A stretch of 64,000 nucleotides of DNA from a virus. This document shows, piece after piece, positions 14,262 through 58,300 of this stretch. Made by a program: the position numbers and the translations under genes. Each line of letters begins with the position of its first letter. Position 1 is the first letter of the stretch. Below the pieces are notes generated by a model. The model was not told the origin of the DNA, searched no databases, and saw only the letters and a program-made list of their open reading frames with translations. Location of the stretch: the IMG/VR virus record IMGVR_UViG_3300025704_000015, positions 15,755 through 79,754 of that record; one strand, written 5' to 3'.

Positions 14262-16790
14262 ATGAAGAACAGCATTAGTGGATTCTACACCAGCGTCGAT
14301 AGACACATGAACATGATTAAGTATCGAGGATACGATCATGATGGCAAAAAAATATATGATTCATTTAAATATCGGCCAACGCTTTATGTAAATAGCAAAG
14401 ACCGTAACTCAGAATGGAAAGCGATTGATGGAACTCCTGTAGGCCCAATGCAGTTTGGCACTATGAGCGAATGCCGCCAGTTCTGTAAACATTATGAAGA
14501 TGTTCCTTCGTTTAAAATATATGGAAATGAAAAGCATGTTCCAGCATTTATCCAAAGCCAGTGGCCTGGCGAAATTGAGTATGATAAAAAGATGGTCGAC
14601 ATTCTTTACATCGATATTGAAACTGCTATTGGTACAGGCTTTCCAGAACCAATGCGAGCAGAACAAGAGATTCTTACAATCGCAGTAAAGAGTAGCCGTT
14701 GTGATACTTATATCATCTGGGGACTAAAGGATTATGACCTTTCTAAAAGTGAAGTGCCACATCTTAGAAAAGAGTATCGCCAGTTTGATACTGAAACCGA
14801 ACTCTTAAATGATTTTCTAGATTGGTGGAGTGATCCTATTAATACTCCAGATGTTATCACTGGTTGGAATACAGAGTTCTTTGATATTCCTTACATCGTT
14901 AATAGAATAGCTCGTATGTTGGGCAACGATGCAACCAAGCGATTATCTCCTTGGAAAAAAATTACAGATAGAACCGTAAATGTATTTGGCCGTGAGCAAA
15001 CCAGCTATAACATTATGGGTATTCAACAACTCGATTACCTTGACTTATTTAAAAAGTTTACTCTTAATACTTATGGCCAACAAGAATCATATAAGCTAGA
15101 TAATATTGCCGAGGTTGTTCTTGAACAAAAGAAGCTAGCTTTTGAAGGCGATCTAAAAGAATTATATGAACAAGATTTTCAGAAGTTTGTTGATTATAAT
15201 ATCGTTGATGTTGAATTGATTGAACTGTTTGAAAAGAAACTTGGCTTAATTGATTTGGTATTTACTCTAGCATATTTTGGCGGAGTTAATTATACAGATA
15301 CGCTCGGTACTGTTTCTATATGGGATAGTATAATCTTTAGGAATCTTGCTAAAAAGAAAATAGCGATTCCTCCATCAAAACCAAGTGCTAAAGCAGAATA
15401 TGCTGGAGGGTTTGTTAAGCCAGTTGTGCCAGGGATGTATGATTGGGTAATGAGCTTCGATTTGAACAGCTTGTATCCTAACCTTATTATACAATATAAT
15501 ATGAGTCCTGAGACCCTCGTAAGGCATTCTACAGTGCCTAATATTACACCTGATCGAGTACTCGAAGATCAAACAAACATATCCCCTGACAGTAATTTGG
15601 CGGTTGCCGCAAATGGCGCAACATTTAGTAGACATAAGCAAGGGTTTCTACCAGAGATTATTGAAGAGCTTTATAATAAGCGTAAGAAGATTAAAGCAGA
15701 AATGCTAGATAAAAAGAAAGAGAATGAAAAGCAAAAAAGTAAGATATTAGACTCAGAAATCGCCAGACTTGAAACTGAACAAATGGCGATCAAGATTCTA
15801 ATGAACAGCCTGTATGGAGCTTTGGCTAACAGATGGTTCCGTTACTTTGATCTTCTTGTTGCTGAAGGAATTACTCTTACAGGTCAACTTGTTATTCGTT
15901 GGGCAGAACAACATGCAAACAAATGGTTATCTTCATTCCTTAAAGATGAGAAGCCAGTTGATAGAGTTATAGCAGCAGACACTGACTCCATTTACGTTAA
16001 TGTTCAAGATGTAATTGATAAGCTTAATCCAAAAAGTCCAGTTGAGTTTCTTGATAAGTTTGGTGAAGAAGGTATGGTTCCTGCATTGGAAAAAGCTTTT
16101 AATAAGTTAGGCGGTATTACAAATTCATATAAGAATACGATGGTGATGGCGCGAGAAGCTATTGCTGATAAAGCTATATGGACTGCAAAGAAACGATATA
16201 TTTTAAATGTTCTTAACAATGAAGGTGTTCAATATGCTGAGCCGAAAATTAAGATCATGGGTATTGAAGCTATTAAGAGTTCTACTCCAAAAGTATGTCG
16301 AGGCGCTATGAAGGAAATGTTTAAAGTAATGATGAGCGGGGATGAAGATAAAACTCAAAAAGCGATCGCTTTCTTTCATAACCACTTTAATTCTTTGCCG
16401 GCCCATGAAATCGCAAGTCCTCGTGGAATTAATAATGTTACAAAATATTATGATTCACAAACTCTATATTGTAAAGGAACACCAATGCATTGCCGCGCGG
16501 CCTTAGTATATAACGATCAGTTAAAGAAGTTTAACTTAACTAATAAGTATAGGGAAATCCAAGGCGGCAATAAAATTAAGTTTGTATTTCTTAAAAAGCA
16601 TAACCCAACTGGAGAAAACGTAATTGGGTTTATTGATAAGTTGCCACACGAATTTGGTTTAGATAAGTTCATTGATTATGAAACTCAATTCCAAAAAGCT
16701 TTCCTTGATCCAATTAATCTTATCTTACATGCTATTAGTTGGTCGGCAGAACCTCAAGCTAGTTTGGAAGACTTCTTTGGGCAAGTATAG
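14262..16790 (+). CDS. 43: family B DNA polymerase gp43
   Basis: Exonuclease DIET and YNIVD; polymerase SFDLNSLYP, KILMNSLYG, DTDS; C-terminal clamp-binding SLEDFF. Confidence 0.97.
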   Translation: MKNSISGFYTSVDRHMNMIKYRGYDHDGKKIYDSFKYRPTLYVNSKDRNSEWKAIDGTPVGPMQFGTMSECRQFCKHYEDVPSFKIYGNEKHVPAFIQSQWPGEIEYDKKMVDILYIDIETAIGTGFPEPMRAEQEILTIAVKSSRCDTYIIWGLKDYDLSKSEVPHLRKEYRQFDTETELLNDFLDWWSDPINTPDVITGWNTEFFDIPYIVNRIARMLGNDATKRLSPWKKITDRTVNVFGREQTSYNIMGIQQLDYLDLFKKFTLNTYGQQESYKLDNIAEVVLEQKKLAFEGDLKELYEQDFQKFVDYNIVDVELIELFEKKLGLIDLVFTLAYFGGVNYTDTLGTVSIWDSIIFRNLAKKKIAIPPSKPSAKAEYAGGFVKPVVPGMYDWVMSFDLNSLYPNLIIQYNMSPETLVRHSTVPNITPDRVLEDQTNISPDSNLAVAANGATFSRHKQGFLPEIIEELYNKRKKIKAEMLDKKKENEKQKSKILDSEIARLETEQMAIKILMNSLYGALANRWFRYFDLLVAEGITLTGQLVIRWAEQHANKWLSSFLKDEKPVDRVIAADTDSIYVNVQDVIDKLNPKSPVEFLDKFGEEGMVPALEKAFNKLGGITNSYKNTMVMAREAIADKAIWTAKKRYILNVLNNEGVQYAEPKIKIMGIEAIKSSTPKVCRGAMKEMFKVMMSGDEDKTQKAIAFFHNHFNSLPAHEIASPRGINNVTKYYDSQTLYCKGTPMHCRAALVYNDQLKKFNLTNKYREIQGGNKIKFVFLKKHNPTGENVIGFIDKLPHEFGLDKFIDYETQFQKAFLDPINLILHAISWSAEPQASLEDFFGQV

Positions 16791-27689: not shown

Positions 27690-29079
27690 ATCTTTCGAGG
27701 AAATTATATTAACAAATTTAATTAATAATGAGAAGTTTTGTAGAAAATCATTACCTCATATTAAATCAGAATATTTTGATAACCAAGAAAAAGCAGTTTA
27801 TGATTTAATCGTTAACTTTATTTCTAAGTATAACAAACTGCCAACAAGTAACGTTCTTTTAATTGAACTTCAGAATTCTGAATATAGTAATCGTAGCGAT
27901 GTAAATGAAATATATCAAACAATTACTAATTTAGAACAAGCTGATAATAGCGATGAAGATTGGTTGTTAGAAAGTACTGAAACATGGTGTAAAGATCGAG
28001 CAGTTCATAATGCAGTAATGGAAAGTATTTCTATTATTGATGGAAAGAGCCCAGATAAAAACGAAGGTATTATTCCAGAGATTTTAAGTAAAGCTCTTTC
28101 CGTAACATTTGATACGGCGGTTGGCCATGATTATATTGGCGATGCTGAATCTCGATTTGATTTTTATAATAGAGATGAAGAGAAGTTACCATTTGATTTA
28201 ACAATGTTTAATGAAATCACCGGCGGTGGTTTACCTAATAAAACATTAAACATTATCCTTGCAGGAACTGGTGTTGGTAAGAGTTTGGCTATGTGCCACC
28301 TTGCTGCAGATGGAATTTCTCAAGGAAAGAATGTTCTTTATATAACAATGGAAATGGCTGAAGAGCGTATCGCTGAACGTATTGATGCTAATTTGTTTGA
28401 TGTAAGGATTGATCAACTTGATACGCTTTCCCGTGAAAACTTTAATTCTAAAATAAAGAAAGTTTCTGATAAAGTTAAAGGTCAGTTGATTATTAAGGAA
28501 TACCCAACTGCTGGAGCTCATGTTGGTCACTTCAGAGCTTTGATAACAGAGCTTAAAATGAAGAAACAATTTGTACCAGATGTTATCTTTATTGATTATC
28601 TAAACATTTGTGCTAGTAGCAGAATTAAAGGTTTAAGCGGAGGCGTTAACACCTATTCTTTAATTAAAAGTATTGCTGAAGAAGTTAGAGGATTGGCCGT
28701 TGAGTGTAATGTTCCAATTTGGAGTGCTACTCAGGTTACTCGTTCTGGATTTAATAATTCCGATGTTGACTTAACTGATACATCAGAAAGTTTCGGCTTA
28801 CCTGCCACAGCTGACTTAATGATTGCTTTAATTAGTAATGAACAGTTAGAAGGAATGAATCAAATAATGGTAAAGCAATTGAAGAATCGTTATAATGATC
28901 CAAGTAATAATAAACGGTTTGTCGTTGGAGTAGATAAATCTAAGATGCGTTTATATGATGTTGCTGACCCAACTCAAGATATATTAGATGATTCTAAAAT
29001 AGCAGGAGCACAAGTGGGTAATAGTGATGCCATGCATAACATTGGTAAGAACGTAGACTTCTCTGGTTTTAAAGTTTGA
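27682..29079 (+). CDS. 41: replicative helicase gp41
   Basis: AGTGVGKS, IKEYPT, IDYLNI, SATQVTR, SESFGLP, KQLKNRY. Confidence 0.95.
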   Translation: MNKSFEEIILTNLINNEKFCRKSLPHIKSEYFDNQEKAVYDLIVNFISKYNKLPTSNVLLIELQNSEYSNRSDVNEIYQTITNLEQADNSDEDWLLESTETWCKDRAVHNAVMESISIIDGKSPDKNEGIIPEILSKALSVTFDTAVGHDYIGDAESRFDFYNRDEEKLPFDLTMFNEITGGGLPNKTLNIILAGTGVGKSLAMCHLAADGISQGKNVLYITMEMAEERIAERIDANLFDVRIDQLDTLSRENFNSKIKKVSDKVKGQLIIKEYPTAGAHVGHFRALITELKMKKQFVPDVIFIDYLNICASSRIKGLSGGVNTYSLIKSIAEEVRGLAVECNVPIWSATQVTRSGFNNSDVDLTDTSESFGLPATADLMIALISNEQLEGMNQIMVKQLKNRYNDPSNNKRFVVGVDKSKMRLYDVADPTQDILDDSKIAGAQVGNSDAMHNIGKNVDFSGFKV

Positions 29080-43975: not shown

Positions 43976-44038
43976 CAAACCCTTATTCTACGGGGGTTCC
44001 AGAACAAAATGCACATTTTGTGAATTATTTTATTTACA
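43976..44038 (+). repeat. 63-bp promoter-proximal repeat, copy 2
   Basis: Matches 5053-5115 except that the central TG is CA. Confidence 0.9.
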
Positions 44039-44061
44039 AATGTGCCTTTTTATGGTATAAT
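44033..44061 (+). promoter_or_regulatory. early promoter TTTACA-17-TATAAT
   Basis: Heads the small-ORF operon 44108-45695. Confidence 0.8.
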
Positions 44062-44107
44062 ATAACTACAGAGAGGGACACCAACCAACCCGATCAACCA
44101 CCACAAA

Positions 44108-44448: not shown

Positions 44449-44697
44449 ATGACAATAAAACCAAATCGCACTCACTGCTACAGATTTACTGTAGAGATGG
44501 ACAATGAAGAAGATATGAAATCTCTGGCCACGTTCAGAAAATCATTCTATGGGACTAACCAATATGTAAAATGTCAAGGCCGTTGGGGTGAGAATAACCC
44601 CAATTATAAAAGAAGCCACAACTTCCTAGGACATTCGAGATCGTTCTGCCCAGTTTCACTCGCCAAATATTGCGACGTTTATGTTTACTTTCGATAA
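44449..44697 (+). CDS. early hypothetical protein
   Basis: 82-aa ORF in a tightly packed operon. Confidence 0.6.
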   Translation: MTIKPNRTHCYRFTVEMDNEEDMKSLATFRKSFYGTNQYVKCQGRWGENNPNYKRSHNFLGHSRSFCPVSLAKYCDVYVYFR

Positions 44698-44700
44698 GAT

Positions 44701-44787
44701 ATGAATTTAATAAGAATCACTCTTATGATGTTAGCCTGTACCGTCTGTTGGTACTGGTCAGTGAGATTAGTTTTAATAATTTTTTAA
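44701..44787 (+). CDS. 28-aa hydrophobic peptide
   Basis: MNLIRITLMMLACTVCWYWSVRLVLIIF; fills the gap almost exactly. Confidence 0.4.
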   Translation: MNLIRITLMMLACTVCWYWSVRLVLIIF

Positions 44788-44788
44788 G

Positions 44789-45004
44789 ATGAAACCAAAC
44801 CTATTACAAAAACTATTAACCCAATTTCCTAACACTCAAAATGTTGAAATTCGTGGTGAGATTCAAAGTGTTCCAGAACTAACCGAGGAAAACTTTTGGA
44901 CCTTAATTAAAAGCCACAACGAACTTGTTGAAAAGTTCAATTACGCCATTCACAACCTAAATGCAGAGTGCGAAGAACTAAGAAATAAACTAAATCAAAA
45001 ATAA
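44789..45004 (+). CDS. early hypothetical protein
   Basis: 71 aa with a coiled-coil-like tail. Confidence 0.55.
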   Translation: MKPNLLQKLLTQFPNTQNVEIRGEIQSVPELTEENFWTLIKSHNELVEKFNYAIHNLNAECEELRNKLNQK

Positions 45005-45021
45005 AAACCATTAATTATATT

Positions 45022-45240
45022 ATGAAAAAAACAACCAGCGCTAAATTCGAAAAACTGAAAGCCAATATTGCTAAACTTGAACTTCAAAAGGGAGATAAAA
45101 CTAACTTTGGCTCAGTTGTTAAAGTAGGCGAAACAGGAATCACTTTTAAGAATACATACTCACCAAAGACAAGAATCCTGTTTATCCAACGCAAGTTTGG
45201 AAGAAACGAATATGTATTGAATGACCTAATTAAACTTTAA
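45022..45240 (+). CDS. early hypothetical protein
   Basis: 72-aa ORF. Confidence 0.55.
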   Translation: MKKTTSAKFEKLKANIAKLELQKGDKTNFGSVVKVGETGITFKNTYSPKTRILFIQRKFGRNEYVLNDLIKL

Positions 45241-45242
45241 TT

Positions 45243-45416
45243 ATGAAAGAAACAAATTACACTACAAACATTAAGGCCGGTGATTCTGTGATGGTTAACG
45301 GTATGCAAATTATCGTTAATGAGAATTGCGGAAACGGCTGCTTTTATGGAACAGATTGTGATGGCGATGAGATCGAATTCGCCACCGAAGAAATCTTAGC
45401 AGTTGTTCCAGATTAA
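45243..45416 (+). CDS. 57-aa early hypothetical protein (not in ORF track)
   Basis: MKETNYTTNIKAGDSVMVNG...; fills an operon gap. Confidence 0.55.
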   Translation: MKETNYTTNIKAGDSVMVNGMQIIVNENCGNGCFYGTDCDGDEIEFATEEILAVVPD

Positions 45417-45425
45417 TATAATAAT

Positions 45426-45623
45426 ATGGAAAAGATAGAAGAGCTAAAACAAAAGTATATTTTTGACCGTTTGGAATGCCTTAAGTGGGATTCAAAATAT
45501 TACAAATATAAAAACACAAAGCTATCATCAGAGCTTGAAAAGAGCGAAGCTAAGCTCGTTGATATTTTAAAAGAGATTCGTGAACTTGAAAGTCTCCGTG
45601 TTAGACCAAAGAAAAATAAATAA
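45426..45623 (+). CDS. early hypothetical protein
   Basis: 65-aa ORF ending just before the RNA gene. Confidence 0.5.
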   Translation: MEKIEELKQKYIFDRLECLKWDSKYYKYKNTKLSSELEKSEAKLVDILKEIRELESLRVRPKKNK

Positions 45624-45626
45624 AAC

Positions 45627-45695
45627 GGGGGTGTAAAAGAATTCGACGCTAGTTTCGGCTAACGGACCCGGGCGCGATACCCGGCACCTCCACCA
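45627..45695 (+). ncRNA. minimal tmRNA-like RNA (tRNA-like domain only, 69 nt)
   Basis: Acceptor stem GGGGGTG/CACCTCC with G3:U70 and an ACCA end; 5' loop ending ATTCGAC; GGAC before the T-stem CCGGG/CCCGG; central stem closed by TTCG. Confidence 0.8.
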
Positions 45696-45704
45696 TTTAA
45701 AATA

Positions 45705-45742
45705 AAAAACCCGCTCTGAATTAAACCAGGGCGGGTGTTTTT
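45705..45742. terminator. bidirectional intrinsic terminator
   Basis: A6-CCCGCTCTG...CAGGGCGGG-TGTTTTT between converging transcription units. Confidence 0.85.
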
Positions 45743-45759
45743 CTAAATATATATATATC

Positions 45760-46113
45760 TTACTTAACGTTTGGCTCGTCTTTTTCTGTTGAGTATTCTG
45801 CTAAAAACTCTCTTAATTCATTAATGTCATTTGCGTTTAAGCTCATAAATGTTCTTCGGGCCGCACCAGATGTGCGGCTTTCACTAACCTTTTCAATCTC
45901 TAAACATTTACGAGTGCCTAACTTTGATTCCAATTCATCAGGGCCAATAAATTCAAGAAGCTTAAACGTGGAATTTGCATGTGTTCCTCCATCTTCCCAT
46001 CCAGCCAATTCGGTTTTTTCAAGCAGAACCTTTGCTTCTTCTTTAATGGGTTTACCCTCAAGAATCGCCTTCGCGGCATCTTCAAGTTCTTTATTTTTGT
46101 TTGATAGATTCAT
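45760..46113 (-). CDS. MNLSN-leader family protein 4
   Basis: MNLSNKNKELEDAAKAILEG leader. Confidence 0.65.
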   Translation of the reverse strand: MNLSNKNKELEDAAKAILEGKPIKEEAKVLLEKTELAGWEDGGTHANSTFKLLEFIGPDELESKLGTRKCLEIEKVSESRTSGAARRTFMSLNANDINELREFLAEYSTEKDEPNVK

Positions 46114-46116
46114 ATA

Positions 46117-46455
46117 TTAAATTTTTTCTATTGAAGTAATGTTTGGATAGTTTGGTTTATTACTTAGAACTACTTTAACTTTATCTCCTGCTTTATACTT
46201 CTTACTAAGCTTTGGATCAAACCCAAATTCAGCTTTCATGCCGCTCTTGTTTTTCTTGTCATGACCTTTGAAAGTCATAACCCATGCTTTGCCAAACTTA
46301 CCAGGCGATCTTTGAACTTGTGAAACGCTAGAAATTGTAAGATCCAATTCCTTTCCGAGATTCTTATTAAGAAAATCATCGTGAATAATTGCATTCTCAC
46401 TCATAATTGCCTTTGCCGCTTCTTCAAGGCTGTTATTTCTATTTGATAAATTCAT
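46117..46455 (-). CDS. MNLSN-leader family protein 3 (possible OB-fold payload)
   Basis: MNLSNRNNSLEEAAKAIMSE leader; beta-rich payload ending YKAGDKVKV...NITSIEKI. Confidence 0.65.
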   Translation of the reverse strand: MNLSNRNNSLEEAAKAIMSENAIIHDDFLNKNLGKELDLTISSVSQVQRSPGKFGKAWVMTFKGHDKKNKSGMKAEFGFDPKLSKKYKAGDKVKVVLSNKPNYPNITSIEKI

Positions 46456-46988
46456 TATTTTCCAAAGTACTGGGTTTGTAGAATTTTACCAATTGCTTTG
46501 ATAAGATCTTTACCGTCAGCATTAGCTTCCCAGTCTTTAATAGCATCTTTGTATGTGGAATGGTTCATGGCATCTTTTAAATATTCAACATCATTAGCAA
46601 GACCTTCAAACATCTTTGCAGCTTGGGTTTTTACCGTGCCTTTTAATTTTGCTTCATCAAGTTCAATGCTTTCAACAATTTTACCTTTACTTAAATCTAA
46701 GATGGTTGGATAACCAATTTCCTTTGAAGTGCTTCTGTTAAACTCTGCTGCATGTTGCCTCGCTTTCTCAAGGGTTGGCGCAGTATGATAAATCTGACCT
46801 TTGTTATTAAATATATAGAAATTGTTTTTTGATTTAGTTGTCTTGGCAGTATCAATCATTTTATCAAGACTTGCAGAGCCATTTCGAACTGCCTTCCAGT
46901 TTGATCCTCTAGTAGCACCGTAACCATATCCTTCAAGGATTCCCCTTGCAGCATCCTCTAATGCTTGACTTTTATTTGATAAGTTCAT
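46455..46988 (-). CDS. MNLSN-leader family protein 2
   Basis: MNLSNKSQALEDAARGILEG; internal VESIELDEA. Confidence 0.65.
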   Translation of the reverse strand: MNLSNKSQALEDAARGILEGYGYGATRGSNWKAVRNGSASLDKMIDTAKTTKSKNNFYIFNNKGQIYHTAPTLEKARQHAAEFNRSTSKEIGYPTILDLSKGKIVESIELDEAKLKGTVKTQAAKMFEGLANDVEYLKDAMNHSTYKDAIKDWEANADGKDLIKAIGKILQTQYFGK

Positions 46989-47290
46989 TTTAAAGAAATC
47001 TTCTTTAGATTTTTAATAAGAATTTCAAGATCACGCGCATTCAATTCAATATATTTTTTACCAATCGTGATTTGTACCATTTTACGATTTCCAATCTGAC
47101 CATGCCCAAGCTCGGCGGGTCCAGTAAATTGTGTTAATTCGGCATATTCTTTACCACTTTTACCCGCGCTTGTCCAAGCTTTAATTTTAGTAGCTTCACT
47201 CAGCTCTTCGGTTTCAAGCTCCTCATAAGTTCCTTCAAGGATTCCCCTTGCAGCATCCTCTATCGTTTTACTTTTATTTGATAAGTTCAT
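46985..47290 (-). CDS. MNLSN-leader family protein 1
   Basis: MNLSNKSKTIEDAARGILEG...LSEA. Confidence 0.65.
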   Translation of the reverse strand: MNLSNKSKTIEDAARGILEGTYEELETEELSEATKIKAWTSAGKSGKEYAELTQFTGPAELGHGQIGNRKMVQITIGKKYIELNARDLEILIKNLKKISLK

Positions 47291-47296
47291 TGTGTT

Positions 47297-47638
47297 TTAT
47301 TTTTTTAAATATGAAGACCATGAACTCCATTCTGGAGCATCGTTGGTATTTGAATATTGATTTGATTTTAATTTGTCTTGTTGATCTAATTGAGATTTTT
47401 TACCGTTGGTTACCATAAACGCGAATTTTTCTTTGGTATTAACAGCGAATAAACCGGCGGGTAATGAAACTAAAAAGGTTCCTTTTGGTAATTCAACATA
47501 CCCTTGAGATGAGAATTGTAAACCATTGCTTGATTGGCCATCACGAAAACTCGCTGGTTTTTTATTATATTTTACTTCGGCACTTTTGGTTAATACAAAC
47601 CCTGTTGCTTCTGAAATAAAGTGTTTAAATGAAATCAT
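47297..47638 (-). CDS. putative internal head protein with T4 IP-type leader
   Basis: MISFKHFISEA; late promoter at 47656-47663 (-). Confidence 0.65.
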   Translation of the reverse strand: MISFKHFISEATGFVLTKSAEVKYNKKPASFRDGQSSNGLQFSSQGYVELPKGTFLVSLPAGLFAVNTKEKFAFMVTNGKKSQLDQQDKLKSNQYSNTNDAPEWSSWSSYLKK

Positions 47639-52094: not shown

Positions 52095-55000
52095 ATGTCA
52101 ACCAATATCGATTTGCATGCCGACAAAGGCAGCACTTTTTCTGTGGCCGTCAATGTTGAAAACAAAGACGGCTCTGCTTTTGATTGTACCGGCTACAATG
52201 TTAGAGGACAAGTTAGGAAAACTTATAAATCCGAATATGGAGTAAACCTTTCATGTGATTATATTGATCAAGCTGATGGTCTTATAGGTTTATCATTGAC
52301 CTCAGAAGAAACCGCTGCTATGAAGGCCGGGCGGTATTATTATGATGCTGAGATTTTTAGTGACAGCGGCACAGTAATTAGAGTTTTAGAAGGTATCTTC
52401 GAAGTTAGCCCACGTGTTATTAGTGAGACTTCGGACTTGGGGCTGGGCGATAATACCGATCCAGTACCCGATTCGCATGCACTTAGGAGAGACAATCCTC
52501 ATCAAGTTGCTCCCGATCAAATTGGACTAGGCAACGTAGATAATACAGCCGATGCAACCAAACCCGTATCTGGACCAACACAAGCTGCTTTAAATTTAAA
52601 AGCAGATCAATTAACTACATATACTAAAACAGAAGTTGATACAAAAGTTACTAATTTAATTGATTCCGCGCCCGGTGCATTAAATACTCTTAATGAATTG
52701 GCTGAGGCTCTTGGCGATGACGAGAATTTTGCATCTACTGTCAACTCGGCTATTGCTAGTAATTCAAGTGGAATAACAGCTTTAAACAGTCATGCCTTAA
52801 GTAAAACCAATCCGCATGATGTTTCTTTAGAACAGTTAACTGATGTTGATTTTCTTTCAAATCCGCCGGCGCAGGGCCAAGGTATTCTCTATGATACAGA
52901 TTCTCAAACATGGGTAGCTGCAGATATTGAGGGTGGTACAGGAACAGGTGGCCCAGTAGAATTAACTGACCAAACTCATTCTATATATGTTTCTAAGACT
53001 GGTAATAATATTAACCAGGGTTTAAATATTGATGATGCAAAATTAACAATAACCAGTGCTGTGAATGCAGCGCAAACTTTAATAGCTGAACCAGGGTTTG
53101 TAGGAAGTGTAAGAATTGATGTTTTAGATGGTGGCAGATACTTTGAAGGAAATGTAAACATTTCAGATAACATTCACGTGTTTGCGCCAACATCAACATT
53201 TATTGGAAACCTTACTATTGGTAATAATTCATCCTGTGTTATTGATACTCATTATGCCGACACAAACACACCTGGCTCCACTTTAGTTAATTTTGTTAAT
53301 GCAACAAATTCTTACTATACTGCTAATACTTTAGATATGCGAGGTGAAGCCGGTTCACAAACCGGTGGCATTGGTATTAGGTCTGAACAGAGTATTAACA
53401 GGTGTAAAGTAAATATTGGCGAGATTTATATTCCAACTGACGCAAAAGGATATCAAAGTGATGAAGACGGTAATTTAACTTTCGGCAGAGTAAATCTTAC
53501 AGGCGATAACTCATTCGCGTTTTACTTATTTGGCGTAGATGGAAATGCAAAAACTGATATAACATGCGGGGAAATTATTGCATCTCCAATAGGCAGTAAT
53601 ACTATGGCCGTTTACTGTAATACTGATAATTCAAAAACAACTTTAATATGTGGCCAGATAGATGTAGCTAAAGTTTATTCTATACCAAAGGCAACAGCTG
53701 AACTTTATATAATTTGCCCTAAAATTAGTGGTGATAGAACTCAAAATATTATTGGAGTTGTAAAAGAAATTTCAGATATTACTTTTGATTTAAAAGCAGA
53801 TCAAACCGCGTTGACCGCACACGTTTCTGATGCAACCAATCCTCATAGCGTAACTGCTACTCAAGTTGGTTTAGGCAACGTAGATAATACATCTGATGCA
53901 ACCAAACCCGTATCTGGACCAACTCAAAATGTTTTAAGTTTAAAGGCAAATTTATCTGATTTATCTAATCACATTAATGATTTAACCAATCCTCATAGCG
54001 TAACTGCTGCTCAAGTTGGACTTGGTAACGTAGATAATACATCTGATATTAATAAACCAGTTAGTACAGCAACACAAACTGCTTTAAATTCAAAGGCCAA
54101 TTCATCTGATTTAACAACTCACATTAATGATTTAACCAATCCTCATAGCGTAACTGCTACTCAAGTTGGACTTGGTAACGTAGATAATACATCTGATGCA
54201 ACCAAACCCGTATCTGGACCAACTCAAACTGCTTTAAATTTAAAGGCCAATTCATCTGATTTAACAACTCACATTAATGATTTAACTAATCCTCATAGCG
54301 TAACTGCTGCTCAAGTTGGTTTAGGAAATGTTAATAATACATCTGATATTAATAAACCAGTTAGTACAGCAACACAAACTGCTTTAAATTTAAAAGCAGA
54401 TCAATTAACTACATATACTAAAACAGAAGTTGATGCTGCTATAGGTGATGGGGGTGGAGGTGATTTAACCGCTGATGTTACATCTGATGTTAATGTTGGA
54501 AGTATTTCAACGGCTGATGTTGTTACAAGCGGCACGACTTTGCAAGAGTTTGTAGAGCAGTTATTGAAACAAACATATTTTCCAACTTTCGTAAACCCCT
54601 CTGCATCCCTTACTGATAATCTAGCCTCATCAGTAGAAGCTGGTACAACGGGAATTAATCTATCGGCCGGCTTTAATGCAGGCGCAATTAACGGAGCTCT
54701 CACTGATAATATTTGGGATCCAGGCCTAAAGCAAGCAAACAGAGCCGGGGCAGCAAACTCATACGAATTTAGTGGAACTTCTATAATTACAACAACACAG
54801 GGCGGATCTACTTTAAGTCAACCCGCTGTTGTAATTACAGATGGTGCTAATACTTTTAATGTTTCTATTGATTACGCAGAAGGCCCGCAACCACTTGACA
54901 GCGTGGGCAGCAATTATTTAAGCCCACTGCCAGCTGGAAGCGTGGTGAAGTCGCTAACTGTAAATGGAAGACGAAGAGCTTTTTATGGAACTAACCTCAG

Positions 55001-55310
55001 TGATAATACTAGTGCTGGTATAAGAGCTTTATCTAATAGTGTTTTAAACCCAGGGAATGGCTCGTCTTTCACAATTAACATTCCTGCTGGTGCAGTAAGT
55101 GTTAATTTCTCTTACCCAAATACTCTTCGAAATGTTACTAGTGTTCTTTATGCAGAAGGTCTTAATGCAGATGTTAAGGGATCTTTTGGATCACCCACTC
55201 TGGTTGATGTAGAAGGAGCCAATGGATTTAGTGCCATATCTTATAAAGTATATTCATTCACACCACCTTCACCATTTGAAGCTAGCGCAACTTACACCGT
55301 AACAATTTAA
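52095..55310 (+). CDS. tail fibre/baseplate-attached protein
   Basis: N-terminal adaptor (GQVRK...GRYYYD..RVLEG), APGALNTLNELAEALGDD, NPH-VT-QVGLGNVDNTSD repeats; late promoter at 52082. Confidence 0.8.
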   Translation: MSTNIDLHADKGSTFSVAVNVENKDGSAFDCTGYNVRGQVRKTYKSEYGVNLSCDYIDQADGLIGLSLTSEETAAMKAGRYYYDAEIFSDSGTVIRVLEGIFEVSPRVISETSDLGLGDNTDPVPDSHALRRDNPHQVAPDQIGLGNVDNTADATKPVSGPTQAALNLKADQLTTYTKTEVDTKVTNLIDSAPGALNTLNELAEALGDDENFASTVNSAIASNSSGITALNSHALSKTNPHDVSLEQLTDVDFLSNPPAQGQGILYDTDSQTWVAADIEGGTGTGGPVELTDQTHSIYVSKTGNNINQGLNIDDAKLTITSAVNAAQTLIAEPGFVGSVRIDVLDGGRYFEGNVNISDNIHVFAPTSTFIGNLTIGNNSSCVIDTHYADTNTPGSTLVNFVNATNSYYTANTLDMRGEAGSQTGGIGIRSEQSINRCKVNIGEIYIPTDAKGYQSDEDGNLTFGRVNLTGDNSFAFYLFGVDGNAKTDITCGEIIASPIGSNTMAVYCNTDNSKTTLICGQIDVAKVYSIPKATAELYIICPKISGDRTQNIIGVVKEISDITFDLKADQTALTAHVSDATNPHSVTATQVGLGNVDNTSDATKPVSGPTQNVLSLKANLSDLSNHINDLTNPHSVTAAQVGLGNVDNTSDINKPVSTATQTALNSKANSSDLTTHINDLTNPHSVTATQVGLGNVDNTSDATKPVSGPTQTALNLKANSSDLTTHINDLTNPHSVTAAQVGLGNVNNTSDINKPVSTATQTALNLKADQLTTYTKTEVDAAIGDGGGGDLTADVTSDVNVGSISTADVVTSGTTLQEFVEQLLKQTYFPTFVNPSASLTDNLASSVEAGTTGINLSAGFNAGAINGALTDNIWDPGLKQANRAGAANSYEFSGTSIITTTQGGSTLSQPAVVITDGANTFNVSIDYAEGPQPLDSVGSNYLSPLPAGSVVKSLTVNGRRRAFYGTNLSDNTSAGIRALSNSVLNPGNGSSFTINIPAGAVSVNFSYPNTLRNVTSVLYAEGLNADVKGSFGSPTLVDVEGANGFSAISYKVYSFTPPSPFEASATYTVTI
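53838..54433 (+). repeat. 150-bp (50-aa) tandem repeat x4, alternating A/B
   Basis: AATCCTCATAGCG at 53838, 53988, 54138 and 54288. Confidence 0.9.
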
Positions 55311-55323
55311 TATAAATAGCAAT

Positions 55324-58300
55324 ATGGCATCCATAGAATTTCCTCTTTCATTCACACGACAATTTGTCGGGCCACTTGATACATCATCAGTATATGATTC
55401 ATTAATAGATCTTCAAGACTATGTTAATAATAATCCTATTGCATATCTTGGTCAAGTTCTTAGTATAGCCAGTGGTGATGACGCTGGCATTTACATCGTT
55501 GGTGATGATGGTGCTGGCGGTTTTAATGTTGAAAAATATAGTAACGAAACAGATCTTAGTTCTAAAGCTAATTCATCTGATTTAACAACTCACATTAATG
55601 ATGCAACAAATCCTCATAGCGTAACTGCTACTCAAGTTGGTTTAGGTAGCGTAGAAAATACCGCTTTATCAACCTGGCCTGGAAGCGGTGCAATTACTAC
55701 AGTGGGAACACTTGGTAGTTTAACTGTATCTGGCCAAACTACATTTACTAACAATTTCCCGTTCTTACCTTCTGGTCCTCCAACAGACTCAAATCATGCA
55801 GTACCTAAAAGTTACGTTGATACTTTATCAGAGGGTTTACATACACACGATCAAGTTCATGCTTTAGCGCTCAGTGAATTAAGCGGTTTAATTGATGGAA
55901 ATGCTGGGCCTTCTACAGTGAGTTATGATAATGGAACCAATGGCGTTGGTGCCACACTTACTATTGTTTCTGCCGGTGAATTTAACTTTTTATCACCAAT
56001 CGTATGGGACAATGACCCTGATATTTTACTTACAAATAGAGTATTGGTTATTAATCAGGGAAATACTTTTGAGAATGGAATATATGAGATAACATCATCC
56101 ACCGTTTTAACTAGAGCGAGTGACTTTGATACCCCAGCAGAAATGGCAGGTGGTGATTTTGTATTTGTTACTCACGGCGATACTTACAATAATACTGGGT
56201 GGGTTCTTTCTGAACCTGTTAATACAGTTGGAACTGACGAAGTTCACTTCATTCAATTCTCTGGTGCGGGTTCATTTATTGGCGGGCATGGTATTACAAT
56301 CAATGGTAACGAAGTTTCTATTCCAAAGAACGAATTAATAGAACTTCAAGATCTAACTATATCCGGTGATTTTAAATTAATAAGCGATCCATTACCACAG
56401 GCAAATTATATATTAACAACTGATGCCGCTGGTATTGGTACATGGCAAGAACCGTTTCAATCGACTCTTAATTCAGTCACAACAAACGGAGCAACTACCC
56501 TCAACGATATTAGTGTAGGCAGGATTGTAACATTACATCCAACTAATCCAGTCAACAACAACATAGCCTCTGGTAATAGCAGTGCGTCTATTGGAGGAGT
56601 TGCAAATGTAGTAAGCGGGAATGGCTCAGTCAGTTATGGAGGTATCGGCCAAGAAGTTAAAGGGCTAGAGTCTTCGGCAATAGGTGGAATAAACACAATT
56701 CTAAACACTAGATACACCTCTGCTATTGGAGGAACTGGCAGTGTGGTTGGTTTAGGAACGTCGCCAATAGATGATATAGATGCACAAAATTCGATTGCAT
56801 TAGGGGGCAACGGTAATATAATTGAATCCGCACAAGCAGCGGCAACAGTAGGTGGAGACACAAATAGGATTTTAACAACTCATCACAGATCCGTTATTTT
56901 AGGAGGTCAAAACATTATAACAGATGCCGCGGATACTGCATACGTTCCCAATTTAAATGTCGGCGCAGGATTCAAAATGCCAACAGGCGCAATTGATACC
57001 TACGTGCTGACCACTGATGCAACTGGTGTAGGCACATGGCAAGAAGCGGCGGGAGGCGCTGTATCGGATTTAGAGTATTCAGGTGATTGGGATAGTGCTA
57101 CGAACCCCGCTTCTGCTACTACGGCACCAAGTAAAAATGCTGTATATGATAAGATTGAATTATTAGTAGCTGCTAGCACAGGTACAACAGATTTAAGTAT
57201 TGGTAATGTAACTGCGTCTTCTTTAGATATACAATCTAACACAGGAAACAATGCGACAATTCCAGCAGCAACAACAGTATCTGCTGGATTATTAACAAAC
57301 GCTCAATTTGATAAGTTGTCCAGCATTACTGTAACAAGTGCGATTAACCTTGATACCTTAACATCTAACATACAATCAAATTTATCCTATACATCAAGTG
57401 CAACAAACGGAGTTGTAACAAATAGTGATGGAAGCGGTTTTATAATTCCTGCGGCAACAGCAGTAGCTGGCACTAACATCGCTGGATTATTAACTCCAAC
57501 TCAATTTGATAAATTAGATTTAATTAGTATTGTTACTGATCCGGTTGATCTTAATGCTTTATCGAGCGATCTTAATACTTTATCGGGTGATCTTACTACT
57601 TTATCAACCGGCGTTTCAACAATTGCGGGGCGGGTTGATAATTTAGAAATAAACGTTAGTGCAATAACATCTAACGTATCGACAGATTTAGGTATTGGTA
57701 CTCATAATGATATATCTTTACATATAACAAGCAGCGATGGAGAAAATGCGATACTTCCTTTAGCAACAGCGTCAACTGACACTAACCTCGCTGGATTATT
57801 AAGCCCAACTCAATTTGATAAGTTGGACAACATTACAGTTGCATCGCCCGTTAATCTTGATACCTTATCATCCACAGTTGGCGGAATAACATCTAACATA
57901 CAATCAAATTTATCCTATACATCAAGTGCAATACAAGGCGTTATAGCAAATAGTGATGGAAGTGGTTTTATAATTCCTGCAGCGGATACCAACCTTGCTG
58001 GATTATTAACGAACGCTCAATTTGATAAGTTGGACAACATTACTGTAACAAGTCCGATTAATCTTAATACCTTATCATCCACCGTTGATGGAATAACATC
58101 TAACATACAATCAAATTTATCCTATACATCAAGTGCAATAGACGGAGTTATAGCAAATAGTGATGGAAGTGGTTTTATAATTCCTTTAGCAACAGCAGTG
58201 GAGGATACCAACATTGCTGGATTATTAAGCCCAACTCAATTTAATAAATTAAATTTAATTAGTATTGTTACTGATTCGGTTGATCTTAATGCTTTATCAA

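Follow-up and report, generated by a model that had tools for sequence, protein, structure and literature searches.

A phage-encoded 69-nt tmRNA homolog reduced to its tRNA-like domain, and its viral relatives

The stretch of viral DNA analysed here (the window; 64,000 nt, positions 15,755 to 79,754 of IMG/VR record IMGVR_UViG_3300025704_000015, a 79.7-kb contig with a CheckV completeness of about 44%) carries, at positions 45627-45695 of its plus strand, a complete 69-nt gene for a mini-tmRNA that consists of the tRNA-like domain (TLD) only. We regard it as close to certain that this RNA is a TLD-only homolog of tmRNA, and it is a new, unusually reduced representative of a known but barely described class. 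As to its role, we favour, with a probability of roughly 0.55, the view that it would act as an alanine-charged ligand of host SmpB and EF-Tu, competing with the host tmRNA and suppressing SsrA tagging.

Trans-translation is the main bacterial ribosome-rescue pathway and a drug target. The occurrence, in phages of many lineages, of an RNA of about 70 nt that strictly retains the alanine identity set suggests routine manipulation of this pathway by phages. As ARAGORN is blind to the family and the variant found in the window lies just under the Rfam cut-off, the RNA escapes annotation.

The 69-nt element, its fold and its conservation

The preliminary description of this locus, made from the letters of the DNA alone, had read 45627-45695 as the tRNA-like domain of a tmRNA without its message, and on re-reading the sequence and the list of parts given there proved exact. 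The acceptor stem is 7 bp long (GGGGGUG/CACCUCC). Its 5' strand occupies positions 45627-45633 and contributes G3 to a G3:U70 wobble pair, while the 3' strand, followed by the discriminator A73 and an encoded CCA, occupies 45685-45695 (U70 at 45689, A73 at 45692, CCA at 45693-45695). The 5' strand is followed by a stemless D-region of 14 nt (45634-45647), equal in length to that of E. coli and ending in UUCGAC at its 3' end. Next come a helix-2a-like hairpin, GCUAGU/UUCG/GCUAAC (45648-45663), which stands in place of the pseudoknots and the tag frame, the GGAC junction (45664-45667) and the T-arm CCGGG/CGCGAUA/CCCGG with a 5-bp stem and a 7-nt loop (45668-45684), all on the plus strand. In the Rfam consensus structure, the GGA of the junction lies opposite the GAC of the D-region and forms G.A, A.G and C-G pairs with it. 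The central stem counts 6-7 positions, including one C.A mismatch and one U.G pair, under its UUCG cap. Just 16 nt separate GAC from GGAC, and these form the hairpin; the mRNA-like domain (resume codon, tag frame with stop codon) is missing from the element.

With permissive filters, the Rfam tmRNA model RF00023 aligns to the element end to end (model positions 1-374) at 46.2 bits, which is 0.8 bit below the curated cut-off of 47 bits, with E values of 2.5e-16 to 4e-15, the latter in the scan of the whole window. In this alignment 2 nt stand in for 308 model positions, and the deleted part comprises the pseudoknots PK1-PK4 and the long helix 2. The element was the sole Rfam match with E <0.5 in the permissive scan of the whole window; it is real, far beyond chance. 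At gathering thresholds Rfam reports nothing for the 69 nt, and ARAGORN, whose use together with tmRNA models had been proposed at the outset, gave neither a match nor a tag at this site. The end-to-end alignment with RF00023 and the covariation seen in the family (see below) bear out the reading of the element as a tRNA-like domain without a message.

By thermodynamic folding alone, the TLD fold of the 69-nt sequence does not stand out (z = -1.56). When the acceptor stem and the T-arm are enforced, the predicted fold is the one drawn in the preliminary description, at -22.1 kcal/mol, while the unconstrained MFE structure is a different fold at -25.8 kcal/mol, i.e. 3.7 kcal/mol lower. Among the matches listed, the TLD fold is the MFE structure in 70 of the 89 unique family sequences. 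Further support for it comes from a relative of the locus, L028, in which the nucleotide changes back the tRNA-like fold and break the alternative one. The T-loop CGCGAUA is non-canonical, having C54 and G55 instead of U54 and U55, and only C56, R57 and A58 of the canonical set (U54, U55, C56, purine 57, A58) are found in it. As U54 and U55 are lacking, the geometry of the elbow and its fit to the ribosome are uncertain.

Three further viral contigs, 94-97% identical to the window in this region, carry exactly the same 69 nt. As these three close relatives are also identical over the 226 nt upstream, a comparison of the element with its flanks is informative only for the fourth relative, L028, which is about 80% identical in the region and has an unrelated ORF in place of the last one upstream of the element. 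There, the conserved stretch sets in with the 5' G of the RNA and extends through the terminator, the stem of which shows compensatory changes among the relatives. The element of L028 differs at three positions: at two of them a C-G pair of the T-stem has become U-A, a compensatory change, and the remaining one coincides with the mismatch position of the hairpin. The earlier impression that the hairpin is selected rather than decayed agrees with these changes, with the RF00023 match and with the covariation in the family.

The locus is present in at least 14 marine metagenome runs, and an independent run yielded a 1,232-nt DNA contig that is collinear with the window across the element. Given this contig and the four other viral contigs, an assembly deletion of a full tmRNA, a concern raised in the preliminary description, is excluded.

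A family of viral mini-tmRNAs

IMG/VR was scanned with a motif made of fixed GGGG, UUCGAC, GGAC and CUCCACCA, with 6-36 nt allowed between GAC and GGAC. Not counting the locus of the window itself, at least 117 loci were found, and at least 115 of the 118 that include it have 11 or all 12 of the acceptor and T-stem pairs, although the motif had left these positions free. The family comprises at least 89 unique sequences of 64-85 nt. In these 89 sequences, among the matches listed, 711 of the 712 cells at the eight free stem positions are paired, as compared with a mean of 467 and a maximum of 495 of 712 in the shuffle control, and each of these positions shows three to five types of pair.

The elbow covaries as well. 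Among the matches listed, GG in the D-loop goes with UC in the T-loop in 40 sequences, AG with GC in 26 and GA with UU in 10, which is how the tertiary contacts 18:55 and 19:56 should show up in a tRNA-like, L-shaped fold. The search for TLD-only phage homologs with covariation, which the preliminary description had suggested as a check, was thus rewarded in both the stems and the elbow of the folding viral loci. T-loop positions 54-56 read UUC in only 44 of the 89 sequences, and the other 45 have UGC, GGC, CGC, AGC, UUU or UCC with matching changes in the D-loop (again among the matches listed); in the window, the elbow sites are 45639-45640 in the D-loop and 45673-45679 in the T-loop. The elbow of the family is rebuilt rather than lost.

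The family members fall into a short and a long class. The short class, to which the element of the window belongs, has a plain hairpin, and the relatives in this class carry unrelated perfect hairpins with GNRA or UNCG caps at the helix-2a site. The long class has a closing helix, an A-rich internal loop that often reads UAAR, CAAR or AAAR, a small GC hairpin and an A-rich 3' strand; examples are L027, L047, L066, L086 and the element of phage DS6A (L244:1501-1583). The idea of a 'zero-length tag' in the long class was rejected, as a stop triplet comes right after the closing helix in 8 of 65 cases only; within three offsets of the helix one is found in 26 of 65 (among the matches listed). 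The loop is A-rich and internal and does not represent a conserved stop codon.

Among the matches listed, the element exceeds the RF00023 cut-off in 42 of 48 viral records, scoring 51-81 bits, and a full-length tmRNA is found in none of these 48. In 596 Gb of bacterial genomes the motif gave 80 matches, of which 36 fold, mostly on MAG contigs and often within tRNA arrays. As the 44 non-folding bacterial matches calibrate the rate of chance hits, the family can be considered mainly viral. At about 14 of the listed family loci, the element is placed 2-15 nt from tRNAs of the same strand, in tRNA arrays; the elements of the family are probably processed like tRNAs.

BLAST is too insensitive for RNAs as short as these: the locus gave no match among cultured phages, and for a consensus-like family member only an unrelated full two-piece tmRNA was returned. 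Our literature search found no paper describing the breadth of the phage mini-tmRNA family, and as the scan motif could not catch the element of DS6A, the family must be larger than counted here.

Two further observations concern related sequences. About 13 MAG contigs of Victivallales/Lentisphaeria (L128, L151-L153, L155, L158, L170, L177, L178, L185, L187, L202 and L203) carry a distinct subtype of mini-tmRNA with the T-loop AUCGUUA, and one of them, L151, has two copies about 700 nt apart. Moreover, in L011 (2976-3318), L051 and L086, in oriented coordinates, ARAGORN calls 'tmRNAs' of 324-343 nt, the 3' ends of which are mini-tmRNAs. Their tags are implausible (e.g. 30 aa rich in Gly and Asp), and the calls probably arise from a GGGG further upstream having been wrongly joined to a real 3' end.

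Genomic context and possible function

The DNA polymerase encoded on the contig shares 49% identity with that of Phage C48C1 (Kyanoviridae) and about 46% with those of cyanomyoviruses; judging from such genes, the source phage is a distant T4-like marine myovirus, and it is lytic. DnaB, NrdAB, an SbcCD-like nuclease and tail fibres are also encoded, an integrase is found nowhere on the 79.7-kb contig, and the GC content is 35%, as in the relatives.

Five small ORFs of 57-82 aa, taken from the ORF list, lie upstream of the RNA gene on the plus strand (44449-45623), and none of them has a PHROG match. At 44033-44061 (+), 5' of this small-ORF unit that ends in the RNA, there is a strong sigma-70-like site, a candidate promoter with TTTACA, a 17-nt spacer and a TG-extended TATAAT, proposed from its match to the consensus only (11 of 12 hexamer positions). 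From its layout, the operon might be an early one. The terminator noticed earlier after the element is an intrinsic hairpin at 45709-45736, situated between the convergent plus-strand and minus-strand units; it starts 13 nt past the 3' end of the element, facing the minus-strand genes, and, with an A-run on one side and a T-run on the other, may be bidirectional. The minus-strand unit converging on it consists of five small ORFs of 101-177 aa (45760-47638), none with a PHROG match either. At 44038-44104 and 45243-45334, DNA and RNA contigs of several runs end or diverge, which suggests that the small-ORF region contains hot spots of strain-level replacement.

No conserved promoter was detected directly upstream of the element among the relatives compared, so the RNA would have to be cut out of a longer transcript in the way tRNAs are. 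Contigs from RNA libraries cover the locus, and the ends, strand and level of the RNA are not readable from them; one of these contigs crosses the convergent terminator and may for this reason derive from carried-over DNA.

In one RNA run, X16, contigs matching only 45662-45695 were traced to a standard tmRNA of 372 nt with the tag AKKTQSADAYALAA, which is found at L212:8781-9152 and also in L214, L219, L226 and L240, from saline and marine metagenomes. This tmRNA shares the acceptor stem, the T-stem and the AC-GGAC junction with the phage element, and its elbow is canonical. It was considered as the tmRNA of the host and rejected, its contigs having 60-63% GC as against 35% for the phage and its relatives. 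The common stems are probably a coincidence, because the acceptor stem in question is the commonest one in the family (among the matches listed).

In the cryo-EM structure, the pocket for SmpB Trp122 on the TLD is made up of A15, U17 and A334, while C18 and G19 stack on SmpB and the G19C change abolishes function (PMC8363625). A15, U17, C18 and G19 (E. coli numbering) are all present in the D-region of the phage RNA (45634-45647), and the A of GGAC (45664-45667) corresponds to A334; SmpB binding by the 69-nt RNA seems plausible. An SmpB gene is present neither on the 79.7-kb contig, which is about 44% complete, nor in any of the 48 related records among the matches listed, 12 of which are at least 90% complete, so the RNA must use host factors. 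The same contig, to the extent of its 44% completeness, contains no full-length tmRNA, no tag-coding piece and no tRNA.

The scan motif itself required G3:U70 and A73, and two otherwise identical control scans of IMG/VR were made with these features changed. The scan for G3:C70 gave no loci, and that for G73 gave six, all with one identical, non-folding sequence. Since neither control yielded a folding element, and since acceptor positions 5-7 vary freely and covary in the family (among the matches listed), G3:U70 and A73 are selected for, an argument that charging by AlaRS is important.

Based on these observations, we propose the following course of events. The RNA would be transcribed as the last element of the small-ORF unit, RNase P would cleave at its 5' G, and the 13 nt that precede the terminator would be trimmed back to the encoded CCA. 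Host AlaRS would alanylate the RNA, which in this form would bind host SmpB and EF-Tu. Having no resume codon, tag frame or pseudoknots, the mini-tmRNA cannot direct tagging, and for that reason it is expected to compete with the host tmRNA for SmpB and stalled ribosomes. During infection, SsrA tagging, with its follow-up by RNase R and proteases, would then be suppressed.

By analogy, the 'TLD only' tmRNA of phage DS6A and a similar, synthetic molecule may be seen as precedents for inhibition. According to the accounts of Mao et al. 2009 given in PMC4131195 and PMC11915505, the synthetic molecule strongly inhibits tmRNA in E. coli; in the former account the effect is ascribed, with a 'perhaps', to SmpB titration and is seen 'whether or not chargeable'. 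As inhibition so described needs no charging, a pure SmpB sponge would not need G3:U70, A73 and CCA. These features are invariant, though, which points to an action on the ribosome and fits a tag-less form of rescue equally well. The invariance of the alanine set thus speaks more for an RNA acting on the ribosome than for a passive sponge, and does not separate competition from tag-less rescue. It should be added that a ribosome holding a template-less peptidyl-Ala-TLD could hurt the phage too.

An SmpB/EF-Tu decoy and a tag-less rescue RNA were the two functions put forward in the preliminary description, and they are the two leading readings here. We see the second as a real but minor possibility. 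The rescue would serve the phage: Ala-TLD and SmpB would enter non-stop ribosomes, one alanine would be added and the mRNA ejected, release of the chain would fall to host ArfB, ArfA/RF2 or Pth, or to further rounds, and the ribosomes would be recycled with their products untagged, which would be useful while phage nucleases generate many truncated mRNAs. Phage lambda-immP22 requires alanine-charged tmRNA and not the tag, which bears in favour of such a role. G3:U70, A73 and CCA are kept while adjacent stem pairs turn over, which implies selection for charging and hence for entry into the ribosome; in addition, the similar CDS-less forms of mitochondria and plastids are thought to aid rescue (PMC11915505). 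On the other hand, the host already possesses a tmRNA, and the sole experimental precedent, in the accounts of it cited above, is one of inhibition. Nor is a release mechanism encoded, an RF-1/ArfB domain occurring in 1 of 49 records, and no protein neighbour recurs, as no cluster is found at more than 15 of the 115 loci (both among the matches listed).

A more tentative suggestion, which we consider rather doubtful, is that the template-less Ala-RNA is no passive SmpB sponge and acts in the ribosome, turning host trans-translation during infection into tag-less rescue or repeated addition of alanine. In this view, the rebuilt elbow seen in about half of the viral family would be an adaptation, by which the RNA could evade host enzymes modifying the T-loop or a defence factor directed at the elbow of tmRNA or tRNA.

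It is quite unlikely that the element is a mere processing or punctuation signal, the fold of which recruits RNase P and 3' trimming enzymes while the excised RNA has no role. Its position at the 3' end of the operon, directly 5' of the terminator, would suit this purpose. However, RNase P needs neither G3:U70 and A73 nor UUCGAC and GGAC, motifs that are tmRNA-specific, the family shows no variation in the alanine identity pair, and many of the copies lie in tRNA arrays, where there is no mRNA to punctuate.

We consider it very improbable that the RNA is one half of a split tmRNA, whose tag-coding piece would be located elsewhere in the phage genome, even though two-piece tmRNAs exist in marine phages (PMC9004378), a weak RF04321 match (24-26 bits) was obtained at the element, and only about 44% of the genome is in hand, with 56% unseen. 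Helix 2a is closed by the UUCG loop, so that neither of its strands is available for pairing with a coding piece, and the 'partner' strand in the RF04321 match is the stem of the terminator. Furthermore, the permissive Rfam scan revealed no second tmRNA-like piece on the whole 79.7-kb contig, and a coding piece occurs in none of the 48 related records among the matches listed.

Readings in which there is no functional mini-tmRNA are already contradicted and can be given next to no weight: a tRNA-Ala, canonical or D-stem-less, was rejected on account of the central loop, which is a 4-nt UUCG and not a 7-nt NGC anticodon loop (a 7-nt loop with an alanine anticodon is found in none of the 89 unique family sequences among the matches listed); a decayed or att-site ssrA fragment, favoured by the fact that temperate phages often carry 3' pieces of ssrA, is at odds with the presence of both the 5' and the 3' half, covarying with each other, and with a T4-like, lytic phage whose contig has no integrase; and an assembly artefact is at odds with the four other assemblies and the collinear contig of the independent run.

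Competition of an alanylated mini-tmRNA with the host tmRNA remains the explanation that we prefer. The RNA of the window might constitute a compact test object for studies of whether inhibition is exerted through SmpB binding alone or through charging and ribosome entry.

Comparison with known systems

Our literature search brought up one phage example and one synthetic inhibitor as already known. The statement in the preliminary description that no tag-less tmRNA was known from phages does not hold, as Mycobacterium phage DS6A was listed as having a 'TLD only' tmRNA in 2014 (Hudson, Lau & Williams 2014, PMC4131195; also PMC11915505). The DS6A element, located at 28478-28560 of its record, is 83 nt long, belongs to the long class and matches RF00023 end to end at 43.2 bits, just under the cut-off. 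Like the RNA of the window, it is a phage-encoded TLD with G3:U70 and A73, and without a tag frame or pseudoknots. Being a stand-alone TLD gene within the range of about 60-85 nt, without a tag frame and in a phage with no SmpB gene on its 79.7-kb contig, the element of the window fits the DS6A-type class.

The two RNAs differ in several respects. The DS6A element has a helix, an A-rich internal loop and a second hairpin, whereas the 69-nt RNA has a plain UUCG hairpin; the former has GGUCGAC and GCAC where the latter has UUCGAC and GGAC; and the former combines a canonical T-loop, UUCGAUU, with the lack of an encoded CCA, whereas the latter has a non-canonical T-loop and an encoded CCA. DS6A is a temperate actinophage, while the RNA of the window belongs to a T4-like marine phage.

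With the bacterial one-piece tmRNA (RF00023) the window RNA shares the acceptor stem, G3:U70, A73, CCA, UUCGAC, the GAC/GGA contact and the T-arm. It lacks helix 2 beyond 2a, PK1-PK4, the resume codon, the tag frame and helix 5, and its T-loop reads CGCGAUA in contrast to UUCGANU in RF00023.

Marine phages, e.g. Melnitz, are known to carry two-piece (permuted) tmRNAs (PMC9004378). These RNAs (RF04321) are, like that of the window, borne by marine phages and have similar 3' acceptor and T-arm sequences. However, they are complete, with a coding piece and a tag, whereas the window RNA is unpermuted, self-closed and devoid of a coding piece. A complete two-piece tmRNA of the beta type, also permuted, was observed in a cultured phage, Alcaligenes phage vB_Af_QDWS595 (L247:1436-1783, ~55000-55350), at 93.8 bits with RF01850 and 111 bits with RF04321; it lies within a tRNA array, and the record leaves both the tmRNA and the tRNAs unannotated.

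CDS-less tmRNAs have been described from jakobid and oomycete mitochondria, and forms of about 65 bp from the plastids of Mallomonadaceae (PMC11915505). They resemble the RNA of the window in being TLDs without a tag frame, in their similar size and in having their SmpB encoded elsewhere. The organellar forms, most of the mitochondrial ones being two-piece, descend from a resident tmRNA and are the sole tmRNA of their compartment, whereas the phage RNA is an extra copy entering a cell that already has a full tmRNA.

The closest likeness in layout is to an artificial molecule. Bessho et al. 2007 (PDB 2CZJ; account in PMC3985003) crystallised SmpB together with an engineered RNA in which UUCG joins the 5' 25 nt of tmRNA to its 3' 34 nt, and this 25 + UUCG + 34 nt TLD architecture, according to the same account, binds the SmpB body. 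The phage RNA, with 27 + UUCG + 35 nt plus CCA, has a near-identical layout. The construct was derived from Thermus thermophilus tmRNA and has no CCA, whereas the phage RNA is natural and differs in the mismatch of its hairpin, in its T-loop and in the D-loop side of the elbow. The RNA of the window is thus the most reduced form, a natural version, with an unusual elbow, of the minimal SmpB-binding RNA designed by crystallographers.
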